Shown piece by piece: positions 16,380 to 42,440 of a stretch of 64,000 nucleotides of DNA. Both the position numbers and the translations under genes were made by a program. The DNA is taken from assembly GCA_000004985.1 (NCBI GenBank), contig GG738861.1; one strand, 5' to 3'. The stretch comes from Naegleria gruberi. Taxonomy: Eukaryota. The notes beneath the pieces were generated by a model. It did no database searches. It saw only the letters and a program-made list of their open reading frames with translations, and was not told where the DNA came from. Every line of letters starts with the position of its first letter. The first letter of the stretch is position 1.

Positions 16380-17626
16380 GGTATAGTGATTGTAAACTTG
16401 GCACAACAAGTTGTGAAAAGCTTCAGAAGTATTCCAACTTTCAACTATTGAAAATAATTGTTTGAATTTTCTCTATGGAGTGTGTACTTTCAAAATTTCA
16501 ATTAATATTGATGAGGGTGGACAAACGCGCTGAAGCAAATCGCTTATTAGCACAATTTCTGAATGCGGTCAAACTTTCGAATAAATTCTGAGGATCTAAG
16601 AGTGGGAATTTTTCAATTCAAAACACAAAAGAAAATGAGTAAAAAGTATAACATTGGTATTATTGGTGCAGGTAATATTGGATCTGCATTGGCCAAACAT
16701 TTGGTTGCTTTGGGTCATTCAGTTGTTATTGCAAATTCTCGTGGTCCTCAAACTTTGATCGAAGTTGAAAAGGAAACAGGAGCAAAGGCAGTTCAAATCT
16801 CTGAAACAATCAAAGACATTGTCATTGTAACCATTCCATTCAAAAATATTGAACAATTACCTAAAGATTTATTTAGAAATGCTCCAAAAGATTTGGTCAT
16901 TATTGATACTAATAATTATTATCCAGGATTTAGAGATGCTCCAATTGAATCGTTGGATAAACTTGAATTAACTCATAGTGAATGGGTTTCCAAAACAATT
17001 GGAAGATCAGTTGTTAAGGTTTTTAACAATATTTCAACCTACAGTTTGAAATTCAAGCCAACTCAAGATAAAAAACACAGAGTGGCTCTTCCAATTGCAG
17101 GAGATGATGAAAAGGCTAAGGCAATTGTCTTTGATTTGGTTGACCAAATTGGTTTTGATCCAGTTGATGCAGGTTCTTTGAAAGATTCTTGGAGACAACA
17201 TCCAGGAACTCCTTCCTATGGTTGTGACTATGGCAAGGAAGAATTGCAAGAAAAATTGAAACAAGCTGATCAATCTCTCTCACTTAAAAAACTTCAACAA
17301 GCTTTCGTTCTCTATGGACAAGCAGTTGAACAGTTCAATAAGGAGAAGGGAAAGGAGTGGACAATGGTAGAATATCTCTTACAAGGAGGAGAAGAGTTCA
17401 ATGATAAGTTTGTTGATATTCAACGTTCACTTTATCAATAAATATTCTATACGTGTTAGTGATACCAACATAAATTATCAATTCGTTGTTGCTTTTTACA
17501 CTTTTGCAAGTATATATAATTGAGAGAAATTCCAAGGCGAACCAACACACTTGGTGAAGCATAGTCATACATTGATTTTTGGTAGAGGACGTGTCGAATA
17601 CTTGATATGAGGTCAATATCATTTTT
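16380..17626. repeat. Inverted repeat copy A (~1.25 kb), partner at 41262..42440
   Basis: The reverse complement of 41262–42440 aligns base-for-base apart from scattered substitutions and one 58-bp indel (extra sequence about 17489–17546 in copy A). It spans ~190 bp upstream, the whole F420-reductase-like ORF, and ~185 bp downstream. Confidence 0.8.
16635..17441 (+). CDS. NADPH-dependent F420 reductase-like / COG2085 dinucleotide-binding oxidoreductase, copy 1 (intronless, prokaryote-type)
   Basis: N-terminal Rossmann motif IGIIGAGNIGSALAKHL, VVIDTNN and DAG motifs match the PF03807 F420_oxidored family. It differs from copy 2 at 4–5 aa. Confidence 0.8.
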   Translation: MSKKYNIGIIGAGNIGSALAKHLVALGHSVVIANSRGPQTLIEVEKETGAKAVQISETIKDIVIVTIPFKNIEQLPKDLFRNAPKDLVIIDTNNYYPGFRDAPIESLDKLELTHSEWVSKTIGRSVVKVFNNISTYSLKFKPTQDKKHRVALPIAGDDEKAKAIVFDLVDQIGFDPVDAGSLKDSWRQHPGTPSYGCDYGKEELQEKLKQADQSLSLKKLQQAFVLYGQAVEQFNKEKGKEWTMVEYLLQGGEEFNDKFVDIQRSLYQ

Positions 17627-20062
17627 CAATTCATCTGAGGCATATTTAAGAGCTATAGGACAGATATCAAGTACTTTCTTGAAGAATTCACGATTTCCTT
17701 TGAGTCTTTCAGAAATAAATTGTAAATTTTGGAATTTTTCCTCAGCTGTAAGGAGTGACAATACGAAGTCTCCATCATCTCTGAAATGGGGTGGAACATG
17801 TTCGAGTACTTGGTTTGTTATTTCATTAGATCCAATAATTACGCTCTCCGTAATCTGATTTGCATCTAAATACTCTATGATGGGTATTAATCTACAAATA
17901 CCTTCCAAAAATGAAATATCTTGTTTAAGATTTTCTGGAAATTGAGTAAAATCAAGCATGTAACAGTCTCGTGTTTGGTAAATCAGATATATGGCGTTTG
18001 AAACATCATACTCAAAGACATGTATCCATTGTTGAGTTAAACTTGGAGGAAATTTGAATTCACAAGTTTGTACATTGGTTTCCTCTTCATGATAAGAATA
18101 CACCATTGAGAGAATTGGATAGGTAAATATGTCCTCAACATGGAAGTTCATTCGCTTCACTTCTTGCATGACAAATTCTCTATCCATTAACAACTGAGCA
18201 CCAGCAAAGTATAACGGCTCTCTTGTAATGTTACTTGTTTCAGACATGGTTTGGTAAATATCCAATTGTTCTTCCTTATTTTCTATAAGATGATAGTCAA
18301 ATATCTTGTGAGGAGCTTGGTTACATTCTATTAAAAGCTTCTTTACAAGTTTTGTATTTGCTCTCAATCGTGGGGATGCATAACGAAAGAGGTCAACTTC
18401 ACCATACTTGACAACTTTCTCAATAAACTCTTCATTGTCTCTTAAAGATTGAGGGAAAATTTGCAAGATTTTGCTCTTGGATTTGAGAGGGAGAGTTCTA
18501 TATAGTGCTGGTATGCAACCACTTGCTATTTGGAAATCCAATCTCACAGCCTCTGAGAAGTGTGGATAAATCTCTGCTTTCTGTTCGATGCAATGTCTAC
18601 ACAGTTCAAGACTATTTCTAATACATTCTGGTGCATGTTTGATATTCAAGTCTAAAACGAAAAATTTACGATAAAGTGAAATGTCAGATCTGATTTCTTC
18701 TCCAAATAAATCAAATATGTCGTTGTAGGGAGTCAACATTGAATCTGCAACTTCCTTTGAGTTTCTAATTTTGTCAGAGGCAAATCGTATTGCATTCTCA
18801 GCCCCATAAACTTTCGAATGAATTGCAATATTTACCACTTCAATGTTATTTCGAATATCTTCAGAAGCAAAGGCAAGGGCCTCAGGGAATTTGTCAACAA
18901 TTTGTGAAACCAGTTCTATATCATTCTTCCAATGATGAGGCATTAGTTGTAATAAACACCCTTCAATAGAGAGCATTTGTTTCAAAGTGTCAGTACTCAA
19001 TTTTTCGTAATGTTCTATTGGTACTACTGTTGGTGATATCAAATTGGCATCCACAAGTTTTTTCCAAAATTCAAAATCGAAAGCATCACAATATTTGAAA
19101 AGTTGAACTTGTAGACCATATCTCTTGATCCAATCAAACATGAAATCACAATCTTGGGTGAGAGTAGAATTCATTAGAAATTCCAATGATCCACATTCCA
19201 ATATAAATTCAGGATCATTACGCCAACCAAAAGGTACAATCTTCATAAATTGTGAAGTACCTTTCCCACTCTTCAATGCCTCAATAACGAATGCCTGTTC
19301 TGGCCATGTCTTTCTCAAAAAGAAAATAACCTTTGGATTAGATCTAATGGCCTCCAACACTATCTCTCTATAACTTGTAATACTTTTGCAAGTTGACTTA
19401 ATTCCATACTGATATGCTAACCAAGCTTCAGAATGTAGTGGAATAAAATTGATCAGCCTATTCGGATTCTTAAACAAACTAATCAGTCCTTGCTGTGGCT
19501 TATTAGAGAAATCACACTTGTACAATACATCTTTCAGTTTTGGATCTTTCTTCAAGCTCTCAATATTTAAAGTCATATTGATAACATCCAAGTCACCTCT
19601 CAACCTCTCTGAAGCATATCGAAAGGCACTCTGGTGATGTTTTACACATTCCATCACAAATTCCTTATCATCCTTCAATTCCTCACTCGCAAATTTCATC
19701 AACAATCCTCTCTCCTTCACAACAGCTAACATATGAAACCTATCATTTGGAAATGGAATTGGATTCTGTTTAATGTACTTGATCACATAGGTCCAATCAT
19801 TCCGATGCAAACTAACAAGTTGATACAAGTATTCATAATTTTGCAGAGTATTCATTCGGGTTGTATGGTACCTATTTTTCAGACCGTTTAAACATTTTAA
19901 TGAAAAAGATTGATCATTGCCATCATCGTCATCATTATCGGCACCATTCGATGATGAATAATGATGAAAGATACCATCTATGAGAATTATTTTGGTGCTC
20001 ATTTTTTTTTTGATTTTAAAACATTGAAATTCTTTATTGGGAATTTGTTTCCTTATTGGCAT
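17456..20062 (-). CDS. DUF4116 repeat-containing protein (868 aa)
   Basis: At least six DUF4116-like repeat units (e.g. DKEFVMECVKHHQSAFRYASERLRGD, PEALAFASEDIRNNIEVV, NEEFIEKVVKYGEVDLFRYASPRLRAN). The alternative ATG at 20002 follows a poly-T tract. The last ~56 codons lie inside inverted-repeat copy A. Confidence 0.65.
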   Translation of the reverse strand: MPIRKQIPNKEFQCFKIKKKMSTKIILIDGIFHHYSSSNGADNDDDDGNDQSFSLKCLNGLKNRYHTTRMNTLQNYEYLYQLVSLHRNDWTYVIKYIKQNPIPFPNDRFHMLAVVKERGLLMKFASEELKDDKEFVMECVKHHQSAFRYASERLRGDLDVINMTLNIESLKKDPKLKDVLYKCDFSNKPQQGLISLFKNPNRLINFIPLHSEAWLAYQYGIKSTCKSITSYREIVLEAIRSNPKVIFFLRKTWPEQAFVIEALKSGKGTSQFMKIVPFGWRNDPEFILECGSLEFLMNSTLTQDCDFMFDWIKRYGLQVQLFKYCDAFDFEFWKKLVDANLISPTVVPIEHYEKLSTDTLKQMLSIEGCLLQLMPHHWKNDIELVSQIVDKFPEALAFASEDIRNNIEVVNIAIHSKVYGAENAIRFASDKIRNSKEVADSMLTPYNDIFDLFGEEIRSDISLYRKFFVLDLNIKHAPECIRNSLELCRHCIEQKAEIYPHFSEAVRLDFQIASGCIPALYRTLPLKSKSKILQIFPQSLRDNEEFIEKVVKYGEVDLFRYASPRLRANTKLVKKLLIECNQAPHKIFDYHLIENKEEQLDIYQTMSETSNITREPLYFAGAQLLMDREFVMQEVKRMNFHVEDIFTYPILSMVYSYHEEETNVQTCEFKFPPSLTQQWIHVFEYDVSNAIYLIYQTRDCYMLDFTQFPENLKQDISFLEGICRLIPIIEYLDANQITESVIIGSNEITNQVLEHVPPHFRDDGDFVLSLLTAEEKFQNLQFISERLKGNREFFKKVLDICPIALKYASDELKNDIDLISSIRHVLYQKSMYDYASPSVLVRLGISLNYIYLQKCKKQQRIDNLCWYH

Positions 20063-20296
20063 ACCAATTAGGATAAAAGGGAAAAGAAGTAATTAAGGTT
20101 TGAAGTTCTATAGTACTTGATGTTTACAAAAATCAATCAATTCCCTTGCTGGAATGTCTTGAGGATATTTCGATGAGAAATCTTGCAATTCAAAAACAGC
20201 CTCCTTGAACTGAGATCCACCAATCAAATCAACGGCCTTATTATACTGAATCCATTTTCCTTTCTTTTCCTTTGCTTCCAATTCGTACATCCATTC

Positions 20297-22673
20297 TTAA
20301 TGTGTGTGATATTTGTCCATAAAGTCAATTTCAAAAAAAACAATTGAAACAACCAACTTACCATCCATTGCCACATCATTTCTCTCTCCAATTTCATAAA
20401 CTGCAACATTATCCTTTCCAAACTTATCATATGAAATCCCAAACACAAAATTATTCTTATCAAAGGTGGCTAGCTCTGCATTTGCAATGAATCGATTCTG
20501 ATATTGCTTTTCAATTTCATCTCTCACACGTTTGGTGACCAGTATCGACACTTCATATCTTGAGGCCAAATCTGCCATACACTGAATATTTCCATTGATT
20601 GGTCCCATTATTGTGAAGGATTTGTAGTTTTTGGTACCAACATTTCCAGTCATGGATTTTTGGCTATCAATGGTGGTACTGAAAATAATGGTTCTGTTGC
20701 TCCATCGTTTCTTTAACTCTTCTGATTTCTTGATAAGAGTTTCGGCTGTTGAGAGGGCTTTCGAAATGTGTGAGGGACAATCTGAGGCTGAATTCCAAGA
20801 CATTGTAATGAATCCATTTTCAAAATTGCCGATTTGTCCCTTTGAAGTTTTGGTTGTTTGTTCCAATAGGGTGAAAACTTCAGACGAAATTTGAATGATT
20901 TCATTCGAATTTAGGTTTTCACACAGGTGAAACTTGAATCCAAGTATTGAAATATCTCTACATTCCAATCCAAGATCGAATTTTGAAATAGATTGAGTAT
21001 TCTTCAAGCTCATCATTGATTCTTCGGTTTTGGAAACTTGCCTTGAAGGTCTTGAACTTTTGGACATGAAGGAGGTTCGAGAGGCCAGTTCAGCATTTGA
21101 AGATTGTTGGTCATCATTGTGTTTTTCATTGGTTGGCAGGTTTTCTACACCCTTCTTATCTAATTCCTGTAAGAGATGAGGTGGAAGGAAAGCTCTGTAT
21201 AGTCTGAGTCTTTCCACTAAAAAGACGAAACTTGTTTGAATTGTAGAAACTTCAGAAAAGAATGAATTCTTAACATGAATAGAATCCAGATCCATATTCG
21301 CAACTGAAGCAAACATGACCACCAAATCATAGAATGGTTTGATTATCCTAACTGAGAATACAGCTCCAGAAATTCCTCCAATTGAAACAATGAAAACACT
21401 CAACAATAAAGCAACCACAATTGCAATTATCATTTGTCCAAGATAGAACCATTGAGGCACTGCCAAGATAAGCGTCCAATCCAAGTCTTGAGCAGTACAA
21501 ACTCTTACCAAGCTCACATAATTGGAATCCAATGGAAATGAAGCCATTTCATTACACGGAATACTAGTCAACTTGCCATATTTGTCATAGATACTATTGG
21601 ACACTTGCTTAATAGTTGGTTCTCCAAATTGACTACCTTTGTATCTATTATATTTGTATTGATTAATCTTTTCAAATACAGGAATATCAGGAAAGCTCGC
21701 TGCGAACTTTGTATTAGATTCCAAACTATTCCAACTTACTTGCAATAATATATTCAGTAGAAGTTTCCAACACAAATGCAACAGATCCAGTCAAATGTAC
21801 AATTGCCTCCTTCAAATAGGTAGAAAACGATTCCACACTCAAATCATACATAAACCAAGAGGCCAACTGTGTAGGATCTGTTGCATTTGGCACACTCGTC
21901 ACAATGGTCATGAAAACAATCGAATAACTGATATAACTTGGCACAAATGATGTTTTCCCCACTCGTGCACTTGCCCACTCAATTCCACTCAATCCATATC
22001 TCCTATCAATCTCATCTGGCTCACTATTTCTCACACAATATTCATTCTTGGCAAAGTCGTTACATTTCCATAGATAGGTTTCGTTTCTCGGATTGATTCC
22101 ATCCCACATGGAGAAGAAGAAAGTCTCCTCACCAACATAAATGCCAACACTATTCCTCTCGATATCTCCCATGTACATGGTCACTGCTACATCTGGTCTC
22201 AATTCTGATTCCAATTTGTATAATTGATAGGTCCAGTCAGAGACCAAATCGAAATTCCTAATGTCAAAGTTTCGTCTCATTAAATGGTTGACAGTTTGAG
22301 CCATTTGAACAATTTCATCGAGTGTTGTAAAAATGTGGGTCTGTAATTTTGTAAATTCGTGGTCTCTGTTTTGAGCAGTCAATTGGGAGAGACTCACTCC
22401 AAATGAGCTAGCCCATACAATGGTAATGATGGCAACAGAAACGAGAATGACAGTGCTGAGCATGAGGATGAGGCAAAATCTTACTGAACGATAGAAACCA
22501 TTTTTTTGTTGTTGGTGACTAGTTTCGTCCAGCAGAAATTGTTCTTGGTCTTCCTCTTGATGGGTCGAGTCCTTATCATTGGTTTTGTACTTTGAGGAAG
22601 AAATGGGAGCGACTCTTGTCATTTTGTTTTTTTTTTGAATTTTGTTATCTCCAGTTGTAGCGAATAAAGACAT
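20297..22673 (-). CDS. Receptor-type class-III nucleotidyl-cyclase-like protein (TM – extracellular sensor domain – TM – degenerate cyclase homology domain); two ORF frames with an unresolved junction near 21726–21781
   Basis: Topology: N-terminal TM (FCLILMLSTVILVSVAIITIVWA), ~350-aa extracytoplasmic domain, second TM (MIIAIVVALLLSVFIVSIGG), then RDISILGFKF...GQIGNFENGFITMSWN resembling the cyclase core RxVTVLFADIVGFT...GDAxMA but lacking the metal-binding Asp residues. The two reading frames overlap; a GTAAGT sits at the junction, but no simple GT-AG intron restores the frame. Confidence 0.45.
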
Positions 22674-22982
22674 TAGTCAAGAAACATCACTCAATTAAAA
22701 TCAAGTTGACTTGTTGAGATTGGCATTTCTGGATGTCCATCATCATGTATAATTGTCTCCACCATACAATCTCTCAGCTATGAACATTCAAATATGTCAT
22801 TATTTCGATTACAAATCACAAATACGAATGTGATCTTGAGAAGGGTATTTTTTAATATTAAACATTTGCTTGTTTTATTTCTAAGCTAGCTATTTATTCG
22901 AATTGGAAAATAATTTTATATTCTAAATAAGAATTACAAGGCAGGTTTGCCTGCCCATACATCCTTTCCAAATCCGCATTCA

Positions 22983-24018
22983 TTATGTCCTCTTAGAATC
23001 CAGAAATATCCATCCAATCCCCAAGCTATCACAATAATGAACACTCACATGATGATAAACTCCCGACTTGTATGAGAACAGATCACGATAGACAGCAATG
23101 GCTACTTGCACAGAACCATGAGTTTTGATTTCAGTCATAATCTCAACCATGTTTTCTAATTTCTTAGCAGCTGCTGCTTTGTAAAATTTGGAAGTTTGTC
23201 CTGGAACTGTGCATTTGGAAGGACAATGGCCAACTGTACCATTTCCAGATGAATATGGAACACAAGAATCAGTTGGAATACCTACAGAGACGAGGAATTG
23301 CCATGCAGCATGTAAAGTACCTCCTTAATATTTTTGATTTTTACAGTTATTGGAATTTTGTAAAGAATATTGTAAAATATTTTTCAAACGTACCATTACA
23401 AGCATTATTTTGAGCACTACATTCAAGCATGTATTCAGGTGATAGCATTACTTGAACGCTACCATTGGAATAAACACAAAATCTATCAGAGAGTACAGCA
23501 CTTGCCTGATATAATATTAATTTTCAATGAAATTCACACAAAACTTACAGAAACTATTTGAAATTATCAATTTCAGAGTGAATTAAACTTACATGCCCAA
23601 CAACTACCACATTGTTCTTGATTTCTGATTGGGGTAATGCAATGTGGCCATTCTTTTCTAGCATCAAATTGTTCTGGTAAATTTCTCACTTTGGTCAACT
23701 CTGCCCTGACATTAAATTTACTACGAGTTGGTTCAGTAAAATTATGAACACCCAAATACTACAAGATTACATCCCACTCTATTAGAAAATTAAATAAAAT
23801 TAAATACCAACCTTTCTAAAATCGGATAATTTCATATTATCAAAGTGTGGATAAGAAGTTGCTCTCCAACCAACTCCAACTTGTGAATTTACTTGTTCAA
23901 CAAGTGCTCTGGTTTGGATCGGTTTATTCCAGAAATCTTTCTCTTCGGCGAAAAGAAATGTGACAGCCAAGAGAAGCAAGCAGATAACAAGGAAACTATT
24001 GTAGACGAAACCGTTCAT
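22983..24018 (-). CDS. Cathepsin B-like papain-family cysteine protease, at least 5 exons, possibly C-terminally truncated
   Basis: Signal peptide, then [30 protein letters not shown] (active-site Cys), [25 protein letters not shown] and YKSGVYHHV blocks across GT-AG introns. After GVYHH the frame reads [12 protein letters not shown] and stops, with no ANSWN-type Asn block found. Confidence 0.6.
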
Positions 24019-24399
24019 TTTTTTTATCATATATGTGGTGGAAATGGAGAGATAGAGAGATGTAACATATCCATCGTGATAACTAATTATTTCTATGATA
24101 ATTCGAATAACAAAGCCAGGAATTGAAATAGAGTTCTTATCCTTGCACGTGATAACCATTCAATTATATACGAATAGTTTACAATAATCAAACTAATGGA
24201 CAATGATAAAAAAGATAGAAGGTTGTGTAAAACTTCCTGTGAACCAGCACACCTCTTCGATCTACTTTTCAATTCTTCAAGTCAATCAACAAATTTAACA
24301 CCTATTCCACAGATTAAAAACAAGTTGGTGTTGCTCTTTATCATAATGAAACCATTGGATAATATGAAGGAAAGGAAGAAGAAGAAGAATTTGTGTTTG

Positions 24400-24703
24400 T
24401 GACAAGGTTGGCAGCAACCCAATTCTGGGTTATCTTGTCAATGAAAGCAGTAAATATCCAATTATTTATGGAATAATAGCTGCCAACTGTCTATTATATG
24501 GATATTTCAAATTTTAAAGTTAAATATTCTGTAGATTTCTCATTCTTAAAGACATTTATGGAAAAACTTTGTCTTTCACCTCATAATTATCTTTCAGGAA
24601 CATTACACACTTCTTACTGAATGCCAATTCGATAGCTCACATTGGAGGTGCCTTATTTGGACTCTTATCAGCCTTCTCTTTGAAACAATGGGATAGAATT
24701 AAG
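24400..24703 (+). CDS. Rhomboid-family-like membrane protein fragment (partial gene model)
   Basis: Exon 24598..24703 encodes NITHFLLNANSIAHIGGALFGLLSAF, resembling the rhomboid TM6 AHxGG catalytic-His motif. Upstream exons were not resolved. Confidence 0.25.
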
Positions 24704-25080
24704 GTTAGGAGAGTTGAGATGAAAACTCGATCAGGTTATGAAGTGTGTGAACGCAGAAACTTTAGAACGGAGGGTAGGTCAGTGGGAATTAGTTGGAATT
24801 CGTCTGCTTGTAATGGAGAAGGGAAAGCTTGTGGAAGGAGAAATTTATTAAACCAAGACTATCTATGCAAGAAGGGAAGAAACCAAGAAGGAGTAAACAT
24901 TAGTTTATTATAAAGGATAATACTAAATGTTGTCAACTTGACATGAGATTCTAATAAAAGAAGTGTCAGTGACTAGATGGTATTTTCGTCATCCTTTCAT
25001 GGATCGATTCACTGCCAACAGGAATCAAAAAGAAACTAACGGTCAACAGCAAAAAACCATTCGAAACAAAACTAAAAAAA

Positions 25081-26009: not shown

Positions 26010-26068
26010 CAAAATTTTTATGTGATTTGTGTGGGATTTATCTCAATATCACTTGGATTTACAAAATT

Positions 26069-27547: not shown

Positions 27548-27776
27548 ATTTTTTAATGATGGAATTGAATTGTTGCTGTTGGAGGCATATTAATGGTTTT
27601 GTGAATGCATGTCACATGTTTATTCTTTTTTGGGATGATACATTCTCTTGATAATACTCCTAAAAAGTAACGAAAATTAATAAAGTGCATTTTGGAATCA
27701 TTCCAAATATTGAAGGATCGGTTGATTCAATTTAGGATCATGATTGGATATTTACAAGCTGTGTGCTAAAGAGTTT

Positions 27777-31522: not shown

Positions 31523-31545
31523 TTAAATAATGAACTGAGATTAAA

Positions 31546-34500: not shown

Positions 34501-35565
34501 ATTGAGAATGACATCATCCATTCCATAAACCATACAGAATCTAATTACAGTTCCAATCAGATAGAAAATGTAAATAATATCCCTCTTGTTAAGATGTGCA
34601 AACAAATCAGTAACATCCAGATTAAATCTCAAATTTCTTGTAAGTGATTCTATTGATTGTAAATGACCATTGAAAACAGTTTTCAGCACCTTGCTAAATA
34701 TTTCCTTATTTTTCATATTGAGAGTTTCATTACTATTATTCACTGAGAGCAAGTCTTCGATATTCGAAGGATTCCTCTCCAAATATCTCATACATGAAAC
34801 AAATGTTGTAATGATATTGGTAATGAAAGGAATGATAGTTTGGGTGAGAGTATCGTTACCATTGACTATGGTGGTACCTAGCATTGAACTCACCTCTTCC
34901 AATTCTTTCAAAACTTGAGAATCGGAAACAGGTTGAGTTCCAGAGTATGAGTGTAAAAAGAGAAGAATTCTCTTGACCTTGTAGAGAATAATATCTGATG
35001 AATTGGGTGATACTTTCTCTAAATATTCTCCCAGTCGTTGTAATACTAGAATATTTTCCTTGAAGAGTATATCCTGACAATTAGTATCCTCTATTGCTTT
35101 TAATTCCAATTTGAGAAAAGGTATTTGATGAACTTCATAGGCCTCCTCTTTGATGGCTTCTACTATTGTAAAAATTGGTTGTTCTTGTGGAGATTTGTGT
35201 GCTTTTGTTTTGCAGTTAATATAACTCTGGAAAAGAAATAAAAGTTTAGCCTCGTTGAAAGTTCCCGTCGAAACATTTTGCCGAATTAACTTGATGAAAC
35301 CCTTCTGAATTTCCATAAAATCGGCATTTGGTAGTTTGTATTTCGATCTCAAAAGTAGTTCGAATGTTTTCAGCAAGTGATCGGAGGCTACTTTAAATTT
35401 ATCAGCAAATTTCTCAGGTATTGGAGTGCTGAGTACTTTTTGAAAGAGTTGTTTACCTTCCTCCAAACTCTTGACAGCCTGCTCGAAATTGTTTGCTTGG
35501 TAGGCAGAGAGACCTTTGTTATACTCTTCAATGCCCTTCTTATAGAGGTCGATGAGTGCTTGCAT
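31546..35565 (-). CDS. ESPL1: Separase (peptidase C50, ESP1/ESPL1); exons 35565..33060 and 33008..31546
   Basis: C-terminal caspase-like domain with catalytic His (MIYIGHGTGERYY) and Cys (LLMGCSSGRL), plus a long helical N-terminal region. A single 51-nt GTATGT..AG intron joins the two ORF-track frames in phase 1, giving ~1322 aa. Confidence 0.8.
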
Positions 35566-35595
35566 TTTTTTTCTTTTTTTTTTTAACTGGTAATA

Positions 35596-35700
35596 TTGGC
35601 GGGAACTTTCATCACGTTTTATTCAAATTAATTTCGTCACTTTTATTAATATTAATTTCATCACGTTTTATTAATAATATTAATTTACTTGGTGATGGTG
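35596..35700. repeat. Degenerate ~30-bp tandem motif (attaatttcRtcacKttttatt) ×3 in the separase 5' / AP3S 3' intergenic region, preceded by a T(20) tract
   Basis: Direct repeats seen in the sequence: ttcatcacgttttattcaaattaatttcgtcacttttattaatattaatttcatcacgttttattaataatattaattt. Confidence 0.4.
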
Positions 35701-35825
35701 CCACGTACATGAATCCAACCAATGATGATAAAAATTCCCACATACGTAACAACTTTTACAATATTTTCAAATAATTAAAGGTTTTAATAATATTTTAATT
35801 TTGTACAAGTGAATTTTACATTGAA

Positions 35826-36317
35826 TTATCTATTCATGATTTTGGTGACTGTTGGTCCTTGATTCTTAGTTCTATTTTCAATATCGTTTTGTTCCTTGAT
35901 TGACATTAAAATTTCTTCCTTATTTGTTTCTAAAACTAAACCTCCAATAACAATTTCTTCCAAAATATAATGTACTTTATCAGAGTGGAAAATCAAATCT
36001 AATTCACAAACATTTTCAAAGCATTTATCCAAAGTCTCAACAAAAACTTGGATAAGATCTAAAATTCCTAATTCGCTTTCATTTTGATCCACAGCAAATA
36101 TAAAGTACAATGTAGCATAATGTCTATAGATGAGTTTGGTATCCTTTCCCCAAATAGCACCTCCTTCCAAGAAGTTGCAAACATTATCCGGTCTTCTCAC
36201 TACCAATGAGTAACATTCACGAACAGCTTGTTGTTGTTTTTCGAATGGGACTTGTTCAAAGAACTTGGAAAGACGAGCTTTACCGTGATTATTCACAACA
36301 AGGATACCTTTAATCAT
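35826..36317 (-). CDS. AP3S: AP-3 adaptor complex sigma subunit
   Basis: About 80% identical to human AP3S1 across the whole protein (MIKAILIFNNHGKPRLSKFY...LDLIQVFVETLDKCFENVCELDLIFH). Confidence 0.9.
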   Translation of the reverse strand: MIKGILVVNNHGKARLSKFFEQVPFEKQQQAVRECYSLVVRRPDNVCNFLEGGAIWGKDTKLIYRHYATLYFIFAVDQNESELGILDLIQVFVETLDKCFENVCELDLIFHSDKVHYILEEIVIGGLVLETNKEEILMSIKEQNDIENRTKNQGPTVTKIMNR

Positions 36318-36573
36318 TTTTTATATTTTTAAAAAGATTTTTTATTATTATTGTTTGATGATGAAAGCTTCCACCTCCTTTCTATTTGATGATAATGATA
36401 ACAACTGCTTGCCTAGGAGTTTTAATTCTGTATTATTAATTAATGCTAATGAGACCTCACATTAAAATCTAGTTGTTGTTTTGTTTTATCACAATGACAA
36501 ATATGACGGCAGTTAAAACCCGCCAAAACATAAAACTCACCGTTAACAAATTCAAAAAACCAATTTAAAAAAA

Positions 36574-38169
36574 ATGACGAACATTACCTCTGATAAAACC
36601 AAGGTACACTTCTTCAGAGATGAATTTATGGAAGGAAGATTTAGAAGACCAGAACCTTTTCTAACTGTTGACTATAATTCACAGACCAATCGACTTGTTA
36701 CAGCAGGTATTCAAACCGATATTAAAGTTTGGGAAATTTCCTACTCTGACGATGATGTCATGTTCAAGCTTGTTGCTGTGATGAATCCAATCTATGACAG
36801 TGCCAAGGTTGTCAATATTGCTAGATGGAGTCCTTGTGGTAATTATATTGCTACAGGATGTGGTAGAGGTGCTGTTATTATTTGGAAAAAGAAGGGTCTA
36901 ATTGATCAAGGCTCACAACAGAAAAAGGCTGCTGCTTTGAATATTCAAGATGATGAAACAGATCTATCCTTCTTGGAAAGTGAAGTCAAGCCAACTGAAG
37001 AATGGATTATTGTAAAGAGATTTGGTGGCGAAGAAGGAGAAGATGTTTGGGATTTGAATTGGTCACCTCCACTCATTGATCATAAAACTGGAAAGACAAC
37101 CTACTTGTTGGCAACTACATCCATGGATAGAAGACTCAAAGTTTATCAACCATTGGAAACTTATGATATTTTGCATGAATATATTTCTGATGTCCACTCA
37201 TCGATTGGTGGTGTGGCTTGGGATCCTCTAGGTTATTATTTGGCCATTCAATTGAGTGCTGCTAAAAAGTCGATACTGTTTGGGTTGAATCAAGAAAAAT
37301 TCTCAATTCTAGGTCCAAGAAGTCAACAATCATCAAATACTGCTGGTGAATCTAAGAAAAAGAAGAAGGGAGCTCCAGTCTTTGAAAAGGTTGGAACTAT
37401 CAAGAAGAGTGCTAAGGATAATAAGGAATTATTCCAAGGAGATAATCATACCATTCAGTACAGATCTACAGTGTTGAATAGTGTTAGAAGATTGTCCTTC
37501 TCTCCAGATGGTACCTTCTTATTCACAACAGCAGGTTTATCCAACTCTTTACACATGTTCTATAGAAATATATGGAAGAAGCCAGTCAAGTGTATTGCTG
37601 GCCTGACTTCCACTTGTCCAGTTGTTAGATTCTCACCAATTCTTTACAAATCCATTGCTGAAAAATCAATGCTGCCTTATAGAATGATGGCTTGTGCCTC
37701 CTCGAAGGATGAAATTATTATTTTCGATACCGAGTCCAATAATGTATTATACAGAGCTCAGAAATTATTCACACAAACAATTACCGATGTTGCTTGGAGC
37801 AATGACGGCAATGTTCTCTTTATTTCATCACAAGAAGGGTTGATGGGTATTATTCGATTTGATTCAACTGAACTGGGAGAAAAGTACGATTTACTCTCAG
37901 TCATTACTGAAATGCAAAACAACAGCAGCTCAACAACTGAAACTAATTCAACAACACCTCTCTCACCTCTCCAAACTCACATCTCAAAGATTGGAGAACT
38001 CATCTCTCAGAGTGGTAAATCACTTCAAAAGATTATCCAATCCAATTCAGAGGCACCAAAGGAAGTAGAACAAGTGAATGTTCTTGTTCCTAAGAGAAAG
38101 AATGTTGTAACAACACTTGGTGCAACAACAACAACTTCATCTACAGCAGCAATTATTAATATTGAATAA
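36574..38169 (+). CDS. CHAF1B: Chromatin assembly factor 1 subunit B (CAF-1 p60) WD40 protein
   Basis: WD-repeat protein with VRRLSFSPDGTFLFTTAG (human FRRLSFTPDGSLLLTPAG) and GGVAWDPLGYY motifs. Confidence 0.8.
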   Translation: MTNITSDKTKVHFFRDEFMEGRFRRPEPFLTVDYNSQTNRLVTAGIQTDIKVWEISYSDDDVMFKLVAVMNPIYDSAKVVNIARWSPCGNYIATGCGRGAVIIWKKKGLIDQGSQQKKAAALNIQDDETDLSFLESEVKPTEEWIIVKRFGGEEGEDVWDLNWSPPLIDHKTGKTTYLLATTSMDRRLKVYQPLETYDILHEYISDVHSSIGGVAWDPLGYYLAIQLSAAKKSILFGLNQEKFSILGPRSQQSSNTAGESKKKKKGAPVFEKVGTIKKSAKDNKELFQGDNHTIQYRSTVLNSVRRLSFSPDGTFLFTTAGLSNSLHMFYRNIWKKPVKCIAGLTSTCPVVRFSPILYKSIAEKSMLPYRMMACASSKDEIIIFDTESNNVLYRAQKLFTQTITDVAWSNDGNVLFISSQEGLMGIIRFDSTELGEKYDLLSVITEMQNNSSSTTETNSTTPLSPLQTHISKIGELISQSGKSLQKIIQSNSEAPKEVEQVNVLVPKRKNVVTTLGATTTTSSTAAIINIE

Positions 38170-38315
38170 ACAATTACTAAGTTATTTATCTAATTCTAAA
38201 CATGTCATCATAAAAACCTTCGGATCACATTAAATAATAAATATTTAAAAATTCCTTCACTACTTCAACAAAATAAATGTGATGAAGAATAAAATTATTC
38301 AACTTCAAAAAAAAT

Positions 38316-39185
38316 ATGACAAAATTCTCATCACTGAAAAACGCAATTCCTCGTAAAACCAAGAAGGAACGTTCCCAACCAAAATGGCGTAGGGATTTGG
38401 GTTATGGTACATTGGAAAAACACAAGGATTATAAAGTGAGATCCCGAAAGGCCCATCAAATTGAGGAACAAAAAAAGTTATTACACGAACAAATCAAGAA
38501 TAAGAATGAAGATGAATACTTTATCGATATGGCACACGCCACAAAAACCGATACAGGAACAACAGTTATTGAAAAGATTCCAACAATGAAGAAGAAAAAG
38601 GAAGCCTTGAATAATTTAAAAAAAACAAAGAAGGAACAACGATTGTTTGTACAACAAAATGCGGAAAAGAATTTGAATTTACTCAGAATGAAATTACAAA
38701 TTATAAATAATAATATTGAAAAACTGAGAAGAGGACTTGGATTTTTGGAAGTTGCTTCCAAGTCTGATAAGAAAATTAAGCATAAAGTATTTTTGAAGAG
38801 TAAGGAAGAGCTGGAAACTTTCGATCCTGTGGAATATTTCGATACTGATCCTTTACTGCTCAATCAAACTCATAACAGAGTGAAACGAAAGACTTTGGCT
38901 GAACAATCTGTTCAAGCATATGCACCAAACGCAGGTATTGATGCTTACACTACACCAGCAACTGATAATGCCACACTTGCAGAATATAAAAAGTTGGAAA
39001 AGTTAATTTCCAAGAGAGAAGTTATTGAAAAGACAATTAATGATATTGAAGTAGCTCTCCAATTAACACTCTCATCAGACAAGGTTGAAAAGATTGAAAG
39101 AGACAAATCAACTGAAAGAAAGAATCTTAAAGGTGACTATTCTGATGTAAAGACTGTTCAATTCAAGAAGGAAAGAAAAAGATAA
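38316..39185 (+). CDS. UTP11: U3 snoRNP / SSU processome protein UTP11
   Basis: N-terminal AIPRKTKKERSQP and GxLEKHKDYK motifs, plus a C-terminal KRKR tail as in UTP11L. Confidence 0.85.
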   Translation: MTKFSSLKNAIPRKTKKERSQPKWRRDLGYGTLEKHKDYKVRSRKAHQIEEQKKLLHEQIKNKNEDEYFIDMAHATKTDTGTTVIEKIPTMKKKKEALNNLKKTKKEQRLFVQQNAEKNLNLLRMKLQIINNNIEKLRRGLGFLEVASKSDKKIKHKVFLKSKEELETFDPVEYFDTDPLLLNQTHNRVKRKTLAEQSVQAYAPNAGIDAYTTPATDNATLAEYKKLEKLISKREVIEKTINDIEVALQLTLSSDKVEKIERDKSTERKNLKGDYSDVKTVQFKKERKR

Positions 39186-39349
39186 ATTATTTATTAATTC
39201 ACTTTCAAAATTTTTCATCAAAATTGGAAGCTTAGTTCAATTTGTGATTTTTGAACTGTGTAACACTTGCAGTAATTTGAGTTGTTGGTTCTCTTACAAG
39301 TTAGAGCCAAGTACACTGAGCGGGTTGACATGAAACCAAAATTATTGAA

Positions 39350-41158
39350 TTATTCCTTCTTCTTTTTAGCTACTCTTGGTGGTTCAGACTTTTCTTCTGG
39401 CTCACTATCTTCGTCTTTCTTGTCACTCTTTTCTGACTTGTTTCTCTTTACAGTTCTCTTACGTTTCTTTTCTCCATCGGCTGATGATGAGGATGACTTT
39501 TTCTTCTTCTTTTCTTCGCCAGTTGTTGTGGAAGAGCTTGGAGCACTGGATGAGCTTGCTTCGGAAGGTTTTGATGAAGAGCCTTCCTTTGAAGATGTTG
39601 CAAGGGAGGCACTGCTTGAAGATGGTCTAATTGACTCAATTTCTGGAACTAAGGCCTTTAACTTTTTAATGACATCTGTCTTTGAAGGCCAAATGCTACG
39701 CAATTCCTTGATAAATTGGTCTAGCTCCTTTCTCTTATCGAGATGTTCCTCAACTGGCTTACCCTTGTTATGGCTATCGACATACTCAAAGGTTTTGTTA
39801 ATAATTTGCTTAATAAGCTCGTTGGTTTCTTGAGAGAGTGAAAGTCTCATGTTTGCCTCCTTTCTAAATTTATCTCGAAGAGTTTCATAAACAGTGGCAG
39901 AATAAGTAAGGGTTGTCTCATTCAATTTGTTGGCAACTTCCCTAAAGAGGGCCTCTTTGAGTGCAGTCTTCAAGGTGGAAATCTCTGCTGGATAAGCAAC
40001 TTGCTCATGCTCATTGACGAGTGACTTCATTCGATCCTTGATTGTCTTTGGACCAAAGTTAAGTGGTGGAATTTTTCTCAACCTTTTGAGAAGTGTATTT
40101 GGTACACCCTTCTTGAAATGCTTCAAACGAGCAAGAGCCAACTTTTTAATTCCTTCATTGAGTTCTGGAGGAATGGTCTTGTAGGATTTAGAAGAGTCAA
40201 ACCCGAGTGATTTAGAGAGTTCTTCGAGCTCAGTGATTGCTTCTTCAATTTCTTCATGGAATTTAGAATTCTTTTGATCATCTCCACCAAGAGTATCATC
40301 TTCATCACTGGATGATTCATCGGAATCTTCTTCAGAATCTTCATCATCATAGAATGTGTGCTTTTCTAATTGTTGAGCTTCTTGGTGTGGAATCATTGGG
40401 AAATCAGTAGCAATTACATCATATTCTGTATCATCAATGAATGAATCCTCACTATCATAATCGAATCTTCTCTTTTCTTCCTCCTTCTTCTTCTTAGTGC
40501 TTTTACTACTACCTCTTTCTGGAAGAGTGAGAGAATATTTGAGTTGTCTTTCTCTCTTTGTAATGTTGTGAATCACATCATTCAAACGATTTGCATGAGA
40601 GTTTGTCTCGGACAATAATTCCCAATCCAATTCGTCAGGATCAATCTCACCTCTATCGGATTGTGTTAATAATCCAGTAGTAAGAATGGTATTGGTCTTT
40701 AATTTTTCTCTTCTCTGTTTGTCTTTTTCTTGTTCTGATGGTTGTGGTTGTGTTGGAGCACTTTCCGATTCGAAAACATATTCCTCCTCTTCGTCATTAT
40801 TGCTGGCCAAGAAACCAAAACCTATCGTAGATGATGAAGATGCTTCATTGTTATTATCACTTGTGGTAGTAGCATTTGTTTCTGTTGGTAATTTAGATGG
40901 TTCCTCATCCTCCATCATTTCACCCTCCGATTCCTCATCATCATCAACTACCTTTTTAGCTTTTCGTTTGGGTGTTGAAACTCTTTTTCCAGAGGTTTTT
41001 TCAATAAACTTCTTTGCATCCCGTAAAAGTTTCTTAAAATTGATTACAGTTGTAGGATATTTGTCAGCGAGTGGATCTTCATAACTATCAAAATCGATGG
41101 GTGTAATGGGAATGTAGAATCTCAGAGATGGTTTTGCAGCAGGTTGAGTATTGTCCAT
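39350..41158 (-). CDS. Acidic Ser/Lys-rich nuclear protein (hypothetical; possibly a histone-chaperone partner)
   Basis: 602 aa with poly-acidic stretches (DDEDSEEDSDESSSDEDD) and KKKKE tails. It lies head-to-tail next to CAF-1 p60 and UTP11. No family motif recognised. Confidence 0.45.
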   Translation of the reverse strand: MDNTQPAAKPSLRFYIPITPIDFDSYEDPLADKYPTTVINFKKLLRDAKKFIEKTSGKRVSTPKRKAKKVVDDDEESEGEMMEDEEPSKLPTETNATTTSDNNNEASSSSTIGFGFLASNNDEEEEYVFESESAPTQPQPSEQEKDKQRREKLKTNTILTTGLLTQSDRGEIDPDELDWELLSETNSHANRLNDVIHNITKRERQLKYSLTLPERGSSKSTKKKKEEEKRRFDYDSEDSFIDDTEYDVIATDFPMIPHQEAQQLEKHTFYDDEDSEEDSDESSSDEDDTLGGDDQKNSKFHEEIEEAITELEELSKSLGFDSSKSYKTIPPELNEGIKKLALARLKHFKKGVPNTLLKRLRKIPPLNFGPKTIKDRMKSLVNEHEQVAYPAEISTLKTALKEALFREVANKLNETTLTYSATVYETLRDKFRKEANMRLSLSQETNELIKQIINKTFEYVDSHNKGKPVEEHLDKRKELDQFIKELRSIWPSKTDVIKKLKALVPEIESIRPSSSSASLATSSKEGSSSKPSEASSSSAPSSSTTTGEEKKKKKSSSSSADGEKKRKRTVKRNKSEKSDKKDEDSEPEEKSEPPRVAKKKKE

Positions 41159-41261
41159 TTTTTTATTTTAATTTTTAAATTTATTTACCAACAATTAGAC
41201 TTCCCGCCAATTTTCATATGATTATTCAGAACAATGCCAATTTTATTGGAATAGTAAAAAG

Positions 41262-42440
41262 AAAAATGATATTGACCTCATATCGAGTATTCAACACGTA
41301 CTCTACCAAAAATCAATATATGACTATGCTTCACCAAGCAACAACGAATTGACAATTTATGTTGTTGGTATCACTAACACGTATAGAATATTTATTGATA
41401 AAGTGAACGTTGAATATCAACAAACTTATCATTAAACTCTTCTCCTCCTTGTAAGAGATATTCTACCATTGTCCACTCCTTGCCCTTCTCCTTATTAAAT
41501 TGTTCAACTGCTTGTCCATAGAGAACGAAAGCTTGTTGAAGTTTTTTAAGTGAGAGAGATTGATCAGCTTGTTTCAATTTCTCTTGCAATTCTTCCTTAC
41601 CATAGTCACAGCCATAGGAAGGAGTTCCTGGATGTTGTCTCCAGGAATCTTTCAAAGAACCTGCATCAACTGGATCAAAACCAATTTGTTCAACCAAATC
41701 AAAGACAATTGCCTTAGCCTTTTCATCATCTCCTGCAATTGGAAGAGCCACTCTGTGTTTTTTATCTTTGCTTGGCTTGAATTTCAAACTATAGGTTGAA
41801 ATATTGTTAAAAACCTTAACAACTGATCTTCCAATTGTTTTGGAAACCCATTCACTATGAGTTAATTCAAGTTTATCCAACGATTCAATTGGAGCATCTC
41901 TAAATCCTGGATAATAATTATTAGTATCAATAATGACCAAATCTTTTGGAGCATTTCTAAATAAATCCTTTGGTAATTGTTCAATATTTTTGAATGGAAT
42001 GGTTACAATGACAATGTCTTTGATTGTTTCAGAGATTTGAACTGCCTTTGCTCCTGTTTCCTTTTCAACATCAATCAAAGTTTGAGGACCACGAGAATTT
42101 GCAATGACAACTGAATGACCCAAAGCAACCAAATGTTTGGCCAATGCAGATCCAATATTACCTGCTCCAATAATACCAATGTTATACTTTTTGCTCATTT
42201 TCTTTTTTGTTTTGAATTGAAAAATTCCCACTCTCTGATCCTCAGAATTTATTCGAAAGTTTGACCGCATTCAGAAATTGTGCTTTTAAGCGATTTGCAT
42301 AAAGCACGTTTGTCCACCCTCATCAATATTAATTGAAATTTTGAAAGTACTCACTCTCCATAGAGAAAATTCAAACAATTATTTTCAATATTTGAAAGTT
42401 TGAATACTTCTGAAGATTTTCACAACTTGTTGTGCCAAGT
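41262..42440. repeat. Inverted repeat copy B (~1.18 kb), partner at 16380..17626
   Basis: See copy A. It lacks the 58-bp insertion, and its outer edges diverge at the same positions as in copy A. Confidence 0.8.
41392..42198 (-). CDS. NADPH-dependent F420 reductase-like / COG2085 oxidoreductase, copy 2
   Basis: About 98% protein identity to copy 1 (substitutions L→Q, Q→K, E→D, T/Q→S/K, D→E). Confidence 0.8.
   Translation of the reverse strand: MSKKYNIGIIGAGNIGSALAKHLVALGHSVVIANSRGPQTLIDVEKETGAKAVQISETIKDIVIVTIPFKNIEQLPKDLFRNAPKDLVIIDTNNYYPGFRDAPIESLDKLELTHSEWVSKTIGRSVVKVFNNISTYSLKFKPSKDKKHRVALPIAGDDEKAKAIVFDLVEQIGFDPVDAGSLKDSWRQHPGTPSYGCDYGKEELQEKLKQADQSLSLKKLQQAFVLYGQAVEQFNKEKGKEWTMVEYLLQGGEEFNDKFVDIQRSLYQ

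Follow-up and report, generated by a model that had tools for sequence, protein, structure and literature searches.

Why should an amoeba carry the same small gene of bacterial type twice, in opposite orientations and 23.6 kb apart, with a set of core eukaryotic genes in between? What kind of event placed the two copies there, which of them came first, and does the arrangement still have consequences for the DNA that it encloses? These questions are raised by a 64-kb stretch of the Naegleria gruberi NEG-M reference (33% GC; hereafter the window), in which a first-pass annotation, made from the letters alone, had noticed an inverted repeat pair of about 1.2 kb. A literature search for this repeat, for the identifiers of its genes and for the run or project accessions of ERR1078381, the read set that is used below, returned nothing.

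The inverted repeat and the genes that it carries

The repeat pair is real. A repeat search together with gapped local alignment defines an arm A of 1,256 bp on the plus strand and a reverse-complemented arm B (Table 1), which align over 1,198 columns with 39 mismatches, giving an identity of 96.7% that is slightly lower than the 97-98% first estimated, and which differ further by four indels of 2, 1, 3 and 58 bp. The edges originally proposed (16380-17626 and 41262-42440) were right to within 8-24 bp. The likeness of the arms is far beyond chance, since they represent the sole repeat of at least 60 bp across the whole window. Nor is the similarity confined to the open reading frame (ORF), for the shared sequence extends 263 bp on its 5' side and 186 bp on its 3' side. 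The presence in both arms of these flanks, together with a fragment of a neighbouring DUF4116 gene, supports a copy made at the level of DNA, as opposed to retroposition or independent paralogues, and upholds the earlier reading of an inverted segmental duplication of a single-gene cassette with its flanks; the arms likewise fall within the definition of a segmental duplication as an alignment of 1 kb or longer, with no less than 90% identity, inside one genome. At the arm edges there is no poly(A) tract, and no tRNA, Rfam or tandem-repeat feature was found. The pair is, in these terms, an ordinary low-copy inverted segmental duplication.

Table 1. Features of the duplicated cassette and its surroundings (positions within the window).
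Feature	Position	Strand	Remarks
Arm A, parental cassette copy	16372..17627	+	Inner end continuous with intact DUF4116 gene; A-type inner junction also in contig L002
Gene A 5' flank, duplicated, 263 bp	16372..16634	+	Presumed promoter and 5' UTR; within divergent intergenic region shared with RING-finger gene
Gene A, NAEGRDRAFT_66113 (XP_002678490.1), NAD(P)-binding oxidoreductase, 268 aa	16635..17441	+	Exact protein match, Pfam PF03807
Last 57 codons and stop of DUF4116 gene, in arm A 3' flank	17456..17627	-	Repeat motif scan
58-bp segment missing from NEG-M arm B	17492..17549	.	Present in A, A' (L002) and B' (L014)
DUF4116-repeat gene, 868-aa ORF, convergent with gene A	17456..20062	-	Pfam PF13475 (E = 3e-57), repeat motif scan
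Unique interior, 23,633 bp	17628..41260	.	No repeats found; no paralogy beyond the arms
HUN-domain gene NAEGRDRAFT_48133, arm B inner neighbour	39350..41158	-	Start codon 103 bp from arm edge
Arm B, derived inverted copy, 1,204 bp	41261..42464	-	Between HUN-gene upstream region and NAEGRDRAFT_66126; sharp edges
DUF4116 3'-end pseudogene relic in arm B	41261..41377	+	KNDIDLISSIQHVLYQKSIYDYASPS, then frame lost through 58-bp deletion
Gene B, NAEGRDRAFT_66125 (XP_002678608.1), paralogue, 268 aa	41392..42198	-	Exact protein match
Gene B 5' flank, duplicated	42199..42464	-	Alignment

Each arm contains an intact, intronless ORF of 268 codons that matches the Pfam family F420_oxidored (PF03807) with an E value of about 1e-20, and the two proteins correspond exactly to entries on one 507-kb NEG-M scaffold. 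An in-frame ATG further upstream, at 16563, would give gene A an ORF of 292 amino acids; within this 72-nt extension three A/B differences alter 2 of the 24 codons (L12Q and Q22K), and the start used in the reference annotation is that of the 268-residue form.

What type of protein is encoded by the cassette? The AlphaFold model of protein A (pLDDT 95.4) adopts the fold of FNO and the STEAP N-domain, and the structures matched by Foldseek are 4HUJ, the N-domains of STEAP2, STEAP3 and STEAP4 and the T. fusca FNO 5N2I (E values from 6e-15 to 2e-11, target TM scores of 0.67-0.83), with 4HUJ, 2VNS and 1JAX matched at the level of sequence. The GxGxxG and N-S-R-G motifs are invariant in the family alignment. 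As in FNO/NpdG and the STEAP N-domain (1JAX/1JAY, 5N2I, 2VNS) the fold is a Rossmann-type dinucleotide-binding one with PF03807 above threshold, but unlike these the N. gruberi protein is extended at its C-terminus by about 70 further residues of helical structure (H201-265), and its closest solved relative is 4HUJ, the uncharacterised SMa0349. The initial description as F420-reductase-like is thus appropriate for the fold and the Pfam family and does not extend to the curated model of the NADPH-dependent F420 reductases (NpdG/FNO, TIGR01915), against which the protein scores 40.1 bits where the cut-off is 149.8; the Willaertia and bacterial relatives that were tested also lie below this cut-off. 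There are no genes for F420 biosynthesis in the window, and Naegleria is not known to possess an F420 system.

The family to which the protein belongs is mainly bacterial. The named short-form matches come from Hymenobacter and other bacteria, and a scan of metagenomes for close relatives of the cassette protein found none, returning only bacterial-type loci of 40-52% identity. A neighbour-joining tree constructed without support values unites the heterolobosean sequences in a single clade; the proteins nearest to it are of the long form, one on a clearly bacterial contig with a TetR regulator (L007) and one on a eukaryote-like contig (L006). Within the Heterolobosea there is an older N. gruberi paralogue that is 52% identical, and one copy, with 66% identity and a different neighbourhood, was seen in Willaertia magna; the top 120 matches include none from N. 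fowleri or N. lovaniensis, although both proteomes are in the database. The composition of the oxidoreductase gene (GC 0.348, GC3 0.227) is host-like, and together with the Willaertia orthologue and the older paralogue this speaks against a recent arrival. Any transfer would be older than the split between Naegleria and Willaertia, so that the epithet prokaryote-type suits the family and not a recent import.

The bacterial affinity of the family, with a long-form relative beside a TetR regulator on a bacterial contig, could be taken to mean that the interior is the cargo of a composite transposon-like element, or of foreign DNA acquired recently, with the arms as its terminal inverted repeats. 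The interior contains, however, core eukaryotic genes, as judged by matches to Peptidase_C50 (separase), the CAF1B/HIR1 propeller, Clat_adaptor_s (AP sigma chain) and Utp11, alongside a PPR protein, the HUN-domain protein, a cathepsin-like gene and several ORFs that match no family. The separase, CAF-1 p60 and UTP11 genes listed in the first-pass annotation are thereby confirmed at the Pfam level, and its AP-3 sigma is borne out as an AP sigma chain. No transposase or recombinase family was detected among the ORFs scanned, arm B has neither a target-site duplication (TSD) nor terminal inverted repeats, only two copies exist, and both the GC and the GC3 of the arms are host-like. The reading of the interior as mobile-element cargo is on this evidence refuted, as had been argued from the gene content at the outset.

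Direction and age of the duplication

The direction of copying can be read from the fragment of the neighbouring gene that travelled with the cassette. The edge of the arm at 17627 splits a DUF4116 repeat unit (ALKYASDE/LKNDIDL...), and only beside arm A does the DUF4116 gene run on past this edge. The raw 868-residue ORF of this gene differs from the annotated gene model. In arm B the corresponding relic is frameshifted by the 58-bp deletion. Evidence from outside the reference is provided by ERR1078381, an environmental short-read metagenome from a sample that was assembled by two different pipelines, in which one contig leads from the arm into DUF4116 (L002, here A') and another from the arm into the spacer, HUN and Utp11 (L014, here B'). 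Of the changes between A and A' in the DUF4116 segment 5 are synonymous and 2 conservative, which marks it as constrained coding sequence. The B' relic has kept its length and has suffered the substitutions L>P, Y>H and A>G, which wreck the conserved YAS motif, and the 58-bp deletion is a derived change peculiar to the NEG-M lineage. Since the DUF4116 gene is intact beside A and survives only as a decayed relic in B, arm A is evidently the parent and arm B the copy.

The same contigs bear on whether the repeat could be a product of assembly. Errors are common in repeats whose length approaches that of a read, and the NEG-M assembly is a draft of older date; the Sanger assembler might have misplaced a single copy, or two alleles, and so created an inverted duplicate. 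Against this, 18 of the 20 ORF differences lie at third codon positions, a pattern expected of evolution and not of noise, and homology ends sharply on both sides where a haplotig would continue. Above all, the arm/DUF4116 and arm/HUN junctions recur in an independent sample, through two pipelines, at nucleotides identical to those of NEG-M. The contigs end inside the arms, and the confirmation covers these two inner junctions; for the outer flanks, no near-identical RING protein or NAEGRDRAFT_66126 protein is present in the sequence collection searched. An artefact, which the first-pass annotation had named as a possible refutation, is consequently as good as refuted for the inner junctions.

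The presence of both inner junctions also implies that the duplication is older than the split of NEG-M from the environmental strain. The two are 99.05% identical in unique sequence, with a single-copy dS of 0.018, and the dS of 0.10 between the two NEG-M gene copies is about five times this divergence. Of the young duplication first proposed, the duplication stands, but it is not particularly young.

The course of events that most probably accounts for the locus is that a 1.26-kb segment of the arm A locus was duplicated at the DNA level and placed, inverted, 23.6 kb away. The source would have comprised 263 bp of upstream sequence, the intronless 268-codon gene and 186 bp of downstream sequence including the last 57 codons of DUF4116, and the copy would have been inserted on the upstream side of the HUN-domain gene. 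The insertion may be placed in the N. gruberi lineage, after the split from Willaertia and before NEG-M parted from at least one wild strain. The DUF4116 fragment that was copied along with the gene serves no function and is in decay.

The same geometry is reportedly produced in Drosophila by staggered breaks, a model associated with Ranz et al. 2007. Here two breaks, one of which was staggered over the oxidoreductase cassette, would have flipped the interior once, and the fill-in of single-stranded overhangs would have left a cassette at each end, the repeat being a by-product. Such an event would yield two inverted copies of one segment with identical boundaries and sharp edges and without a TSD, all of which are found, and arm A retains the ancestral DUF4116 adjacency while the inner junction of arm B is novel, as the model predicts for one copy. 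The position of an acyltransferase gene argues in the other direction. In N. fowleri its orthologue is located 8.4 kb away on the 5' side of the HUN gene, and in N. gruberi the gene (58189-59790) is also on the 5' side of HUN, past arm B and 17 kb off; this suggests that the right-hand flank already adjoined HUN before the arrival of arm B, though weakly, since the relative orientation differs and the local order is otherwise scrambled. Moreover, no left-flank gene of the window is found near HUN in N. fowleri or Willaertia. An inversion with staggered breaks is on balance unlikely.

An allele with an empty site, or an outgroup with conserved local order, was sought in Willaertia, N. fowleri and the environmental contigs and none was found. 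The gene order of the window is hardly matched at the locus of the Willaertia orthologue (L001) or at the HUN loci in N. fowleri (L003) and W. magna (L004, L005), and an environmental AP-sigma contig (L016-L018) considered as an empty-site candidate is not syntenic.

Divergence of the copies and possible exchange between the arms

How have the two genes fared since the duplication? Proteins A and B differ by four amino acids (E43D, T143S, Q144K and D170E), and the genes give a dN of 0.006 and a dS of 0.10. Both are apparently functional and are held by purifying selection, as judged from the preponderance of third-position changes noted above and a dN/dS of 0.063. Under the proposed insertion the copy would have remained functional, like its parent, because it brought its own upstream region with it. 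The substitution density is 2.5% in the ORF compared to 4.9% in the flanks, with the 5' flank showing 14 mismatches in 263 bp (5.3%) and two small indels. This contrast had been put forward as a measure of gene conversion, by which the pair might have been homogenised. The lower divergence of the ORF is explained by purifying selection without any need for conversion, which is rejected as its cause given that synonymous sites diverge more than the flanks and not less. No significant conversion tract was seen between the NEG-M arms.

The resulting low-copy inverted repeat might nonetheless serve as a substrate for homologous exchange between its arms, in which case a crossover would invert the interior. 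A comparison of all four copies (A and B from NEG-M, A' and B' from the environment) is relevant here. A and A' differ at 23 sites over the whole 1,106-bp contig, 20 of them in the part comparable with arm B, and 16 of these 20 sit exactly on sites at which A and B differ and show the B state (hypergeometric P of about 3e-24). The pattern expected from orthology occurs at only 1 of 14 A/B differences, where about 82% would be expected (P of about 2e-9). Between A' and B' there are differences at 2 of 447 interior positions, compared with 6 of 78 beside the junction, and the linked sites 17588 and 17603 are swapped between the loci in the two strains. The environmental arm pair appears more alike than the NEG-M pair, which may be an assembly effect. 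A chimeric origin of L002 from k-mers of NEG-M-type copies of A and B was considered and rejected; five of its A/B phase switches are less than 31 bp apart, so they are taken as real haplotypes.

The site patterns among the four copies are thus not tree-like, and a single duplication followed by simple divergence is for this reason an incomplete history. They hint either at exchange between the arms or at assembly consensus. On the former reading the arms would recombine actively, through gene conversion and through crossovers that repeatedly invert the interior, with both orientations, or flip-flop isomers, present among cells and strains. Besides the four-copy statistics, the site swap and the haplotypes of L002, such activity is favoured by the 176 bp over which the NEG-M arms match perfectly at their longest, a length that suffices for homologous recombination in other eukaryotes. 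In contrast, bubble popping and population consensus within a two-copy repeat can mimic homogenisation in short-read contigs, the ORFs scanned include no recombinase, and true flip-flop repeats stay near-identical, unlike the NEG-M arms, which differ at 3.3% of sites with the dS of 0.10 and no significant tract already described. Active flip-flop recombination is accordingly unlikely, and the same low expectation attaches to the proposal that in natural N. gruberi populations sequence still passes between the arms by patchy conversion and an occasional crossover, with the 23.6-kb block existing in both orientations. If this were true, the diagnostic arm sites would constitute a natural, scorable reporter of homologous and possibly meiotic recombination in an organism whose sex has never been observed.

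Relation to known systems

The arm pair is a thoroughly documented case of an ordinary process, the dispersed inverted duplication of one gene, and its polarity is legible in a co-copied fragment of a neighbouring gene. It has practical consequences, in that the mapping of short reads, the calling of variants and estimates of expression for NAEGRDRAFT_66113 and NAEGRDRAFT_66125 will be confounded at this reference locus. It also means that an oxidoreductase of bacterial type is maintained in two or three copies under strong constraint in N. gruberi, and the contrast with its lack among the best matches from N. fowleri and N. lovaniensis may be of interest for comparisons of free-living and pathogenic metabolism. 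Finally, the arm pair lends itself to the question whether Naegleria undergoes ectopic recombination or inversion, for which public Nanopore R9/R10 reads of NEG-M are available (BioStudies S-BSST1363, cited in PMC12344493).

Dispersed inverted repeats, often with whole ORFs, are said to lie at inversion breakpoints in Candida albicans, another microbial eukaryote and a mostly asexual one, where the inversions were reportedly demonstrated by isolate comparison (Todd et al. 2019, eLife). The N. gruberi case differs in being known from the repeat alone. More generally, inverted low-copy repeats are a known substrate for recurrent inversion and for gene conversion between paralogues, for instance in human polymorphic inversions (PMC3961182). 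The N. gruberi arms resemble these human repeats in being inverted copies, 1 kb or more in length and above 90% in identity, with non-coding flanks, around a unique multi-gene segment (PMC3961182), and they are unlike them in lying near the lower limit of the size range (1.2 kb, with a perfect match of 176 bp at most), in belonging to a heterolobosean amoeba and in being known as a repeat only. With the 2Rj inversion of Anopheles gambiae they have in common an inverted duplicate at both ends of a segment, sharp edges and an absence of transposon signatures (PMC1952172). In cases of the 2Rj type an outgroup or the standard arrangement reveals that the segment is inverted (PMC1952172), whereas for N. 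gruberi the limited evidence from N. fowleri favours simple insertion.

An inverted gene cassette and its surroundings

The inverted repeat described in the first-pass annotation is present, and the four collinear inverted blocks given by repeat search are joined by gapped local alignment into a single pair, arms A and B. In the gapped alignment the arms have 39 mismatches over 1,198 aligned columns (96.7% identity), with indels of 2, 1, 3 and 58 bp, and they enclose a unique interior of 23,633 bp. The pair is the sole repeat of at least 60 bp that the repeat search finds within the 64-kb window. The similarity is not confined to the oxidoreductase ORF that each arm carries (genes A and B) but reaches 263 bp 5' and 186 bp 3' of it, with no paralogy past the arm limits. 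The edges of arm B are sharp and lack a target-site duplication, no tRNA, Rfam family or tandem repeat was found at the arm edges, and Pfam reveals no transposase or recombinase family among the ORFs scanned. The feature, a genuine low-copy inverted segmental duplication involving a single gene cassette, is independently confirmed. Such features are ordinary; this one lies in a public reference genome, and no published description of the arm pair was found in the literature.

Features of the arms and their surroundings (window positions)
Feature	Position	Strand	Remarks
tRNA-Lys(CTT)	166-238	-	
5S rRNA gene	5352-5470	-	Rfam, 105 bits
RING-finger gene region	14827-16372		372 aa
Arm A	16372-17627	+	gapped local alignment
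Gene A, 268-aa oxidoreductase	16635-17441	+	intact ORF; exact match XP_002678490.1 = NAEGRDRAFT_66113
DUF4116-repeat gene, 868-aa ORF	17456-20062	-	convergent with gene A; 3' end overlaps arm A 3' flank
Cathepsin-like ORF fragments	22986-24159	-	several short frames
Cys/Lys-rich ORF, 294 aa	26663-27547	-	
Arm B	41261-42464	reverse complement of A	gapped local alignment
Gene B, 268-aa oxidoreductase	41392-42198	-	intact ORF; exact match XP_002678608.1 = NAEGRDRAFT_66125
tRNA-Pro(TGG)	60106-60177	+	

Both annotated oxidoreductase genes lie on one 507,294-bp scaffold of the N. gruberi NEG-M reference genome, to which the window belongs; its base composition had pointed to a yeast. An earlier in-frame ATG would open a 292-aa ORF, as against the annotated 268 aa, and this 24-codon extension is treated as 5' UTR because the three A/B differences within it alter two of the 24 codons (L12Q, Q22K). 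Gene A and its outer neighbour, a RING-finger gene, probably share a divergent promoter region that includes the duplicated 263-bp 5' flank. The annotated RING-finger protein has 419 aa rather than the 372 aa of the continuous ORF, which indicates an extra upstream exon or a start nearer the outer edge of arm A.

The housekeeping genes previously assigned to the interior are borne out by Pfam as Peptidase_C50 (separase), a CAF1B/HIR1 propeller, a clathrin-adaptor sigma chain and Utp11, to which a PPR protein and a HUN-domain protein are added; the HUN-domain, AP-sigma and Utp11 proteins match N. gruberi NEG-M proteins exactly. The interior also contains ORF fragments that carry the papain-type active-site motif QCGSCWA across several frames, indicating a cathepsin-like gene with one or more introns; in Willaertia magna a homologue is found some 5 kb away from the HUN gene. 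The 294-aa ORF, with a signal-peptide-like N-terminus, extreme Cys/Lys richness, repeated C-x-K motifs and no Pfam match, may encode a lineage-specific secreted protein. Elsewhere in the window there are two tRNA genes and a lone 5S rRNA gene amid protein-coding genes.

Direction of copying and a second strain

The direction of copying is given by the DUF4116-repeat gene. The inner edge of arm A at 17627 splits one repeat unit of this gene, between ...ALKYASDE and LKNDIDLISS..., and the gene runs on into the unique interior. Arm B holds just the part distal to this point, KNDIDLISSIQHVLYQKSIYDYASPS, which then passes out of frame via the 58-bp deletion, and no DUF4116 gene adjoins it. A gene cut by the arm edge at A, together with a fragment without its adjoining gene at B, shows that the A context was the source of the cassette and the B site its destination. 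The protein collection has no exact match to the 868-aa ORF as read from the DNA; the reference gene model must therefore differ, through another start or an intron.

Protein clusters at 90% identity included members from run ERR1078381 (PRJEB11402, labelled as a metagenome), for which no paper was found. From this run, Logan contig L002 (1,106 bp; copy A') is collinear with arm A, has the 58-bp segment and crosses the inner edge to include 37 bp of unique DUF4116 sequence. L014, an ENA megahit contig (3,499 bp; copy B'), carries Utp11, HUN and the 102-bp spacer corresponding to 41159-41260, before entering the arm exactly at the nucleotide matching the 41261/41260 boundary and continuing for 525 bp, including the last 112 oxidoreductase codons. 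In unique sequence the environmental contigs match the window at 99.05% identity over 3 kb, with a dS of 0.018 for HUN and Utp11. A wild strain about 1% removed from NEG-M thus has both A-type and B-type copies with the same inner junctions, which rules out an assembly artefact and places the duplication before the split of the strains; dS between genes A and B, about five times the strain-split value, is consistent with this order.

The environmental copies also bear on the direction of copying. As B' retains the 58-bp segment, its deletion from NEG-M arm B is secondary. Over the 57 DUF4116-derived codons, five synonymous and two conservative changes separate A from A', whereas the B'-specific changes (L>P, Y>H, A>G) destroy the conserved YAS motif; this is separate evidence that the gene end is functional at A and that B carries a neutral relic. 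The sample (L002, L014 and L015; ENA assembly ERZ929261) contains this N. gruberi-like strain, which could be used as a second genome for population comparisons.

Selection, and possible exchange and inversion

Genes A and B differ at 20 nt, 18 of which are third codon positions, with four conservative amino-acid differences (Nei-Gojobori dS = 0.101, dN = 0.0063, dN/dS = 0.063). Divergence is 4.9% in the flanks and 2.5% in the ORF (Fisher P = 0.037). However, synonymous sites, at 9.5% raw, are diverged at least as much as the flanks (P = 0.055, tested in this direction), so the lower density in the ORF reflects purifying selection on two functional genes rather than homogenisation, and on this substitution pattern both copies are under constraint. 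The longest identical run, 176 bp, is no excess over expectation, whether taken over the whole arm (P = 0.10) or over third positions (P = 0.19).

The four copies A, B, A' and B' do not fit a simple tree. The L002 span contains 28 sites at which NEG-M A and B differ; A' agrees with B at 16 of them and with A at the other 12, and it has four changes of its own. A and A' have 23 differences across the whole contig, and in the region comparable with arm B 16 of 20 fall on A/B sites (P about 3e-24); dS(A,A') is 0.062, exceeding the single-copy strain value (P = 0.012). In the four-way region there are 14 A/B differences, one of which follows the orthology pattern, against about 82% expected (P about 2e-9); between A' and B', 2 of 447 interior positions are different, against 6 of 78 beside the junction (P = 2e-4). 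Two linked sites 15 bp apart, 17588 and 17603 in arm A (41300 and 41285 in arm B), have their haplotype swapped between the loci: G,T lies by DUF4116 and T,C by HUN in NEG-M, with the reverse in the environmental strain, and both linkages to unique flanks lie close enough to the junction for k-mers to bridge. The observed site pattern is the one expected from patchy gene conversion between the arms in the environmental lineage. A single conversion event does not readily account for the reciprocal two-site swap. Much of the pattern could also arise through bubble popping and population consensus when a two-copy repeat is assembled from short metagenomic reads; L002 as a de Bruijn chimera of NEG-M-type copies is excluded by five of its phase switches, less than 31 bp apart, which mark real haplotypes.

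Flip-flop inversion of the interior through recombination between the arms is a hypothetical possibility, made slightly likelier by these non-tree-like patterns and less likely by the 3.3% divergence between the NEG-M arms. None of the accessible data joins an outer flank to an inner one across an arm. The inner junctions move along with the interior and carry no information on its orientation, and outgroup gene order (Willaertia, N. fowleri) is too scrambled to polarise it. Nanopore reads of NEG-M are public (S-BSST1363; PMC12344493). The Willaertia oxidoreductase orthologue sits in an unrelated neighbourhood, and around HUN, N. fowleri and W. magna have in common with the window only an acyltransferase and the cathepsin-like gene. 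Insertion of arm B into a pre-existing neighbourhood is weakly favoured over origin through a staggered-break inversion, because the acyltransferase is on the HUN 5' side both in N. fowleri (8.4 kb) and in N. gruberi (17 kb, beyond arm B). In W. magna (GCA_041937235.1) the same 20 kb or so around the HUN orthologue occurs on JBEGDK010000166.1 and JBEGDK010000039.1, with the same called-gene order and identical window-ORF tblastn identities, one copy at the extreme end of a 1.29-Mb contig; the doubling probably represents haplotigs or assembly duplication.

Family and fold of the oxidoreductase

The search gave about 2,650 homologues, of which the named ones are bacterial (Hymenobacter and others), with some 55% identity across the first 72% of the protein. 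A neighbour-joining tree, drawn without support values, gives a heterolobosean clade of four, comprising A, B, the Willaertia protein (66%) and an older N. gruberi paralogue (52%), which adjoins other long-form proteins, of which one is encoded on a clearly bacterial contig and another on a contig that looks eukaryotic. The latter protein (P0004; 45% identity, 93% coverage) is found on contig Ga0606088_0054 of JGI metagenome 3300062526, whose 35% GC, adaptor-complex subunit, SPRY and Macro domain genes and fragmented gene calls suggest a eukaryote likewise carrying the family. The N. gruberi gene is host-like in composition (GC3 0.23). A bacterial origin is plausible, and any transfer would be older than the Naegleria-Willaertia split and unconnected with the duplication.

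The protein matches Pfam PF03807 and scores 40 bits against the NADPH-dependent F420 reductase (FNO) model TIGR01915, for which the cut-off is 149.8; the Willaertia and bacterial relatives are also far below. The structure predicted from a 44-sequence alignment (pLDDT 95.4, pTM 0.92) has as its nearest solved folds the uncharacterised rhizobial protein 4HUJ, STEAP N-terminal NADPH domains and T. fusca FNO, with residues 201-265 modelled as an additional helical extension. Because of the Pfam match, the low TIGR01915 score and these fold neighbours, it is classed as a putative FNO/STEAP-N-type NAD(P)-dependent oxidoreductase. The invariant N-S-R-G motif after strand 2, presumably linked to NADP preference in FNO, suggests by analogy the same preference here.
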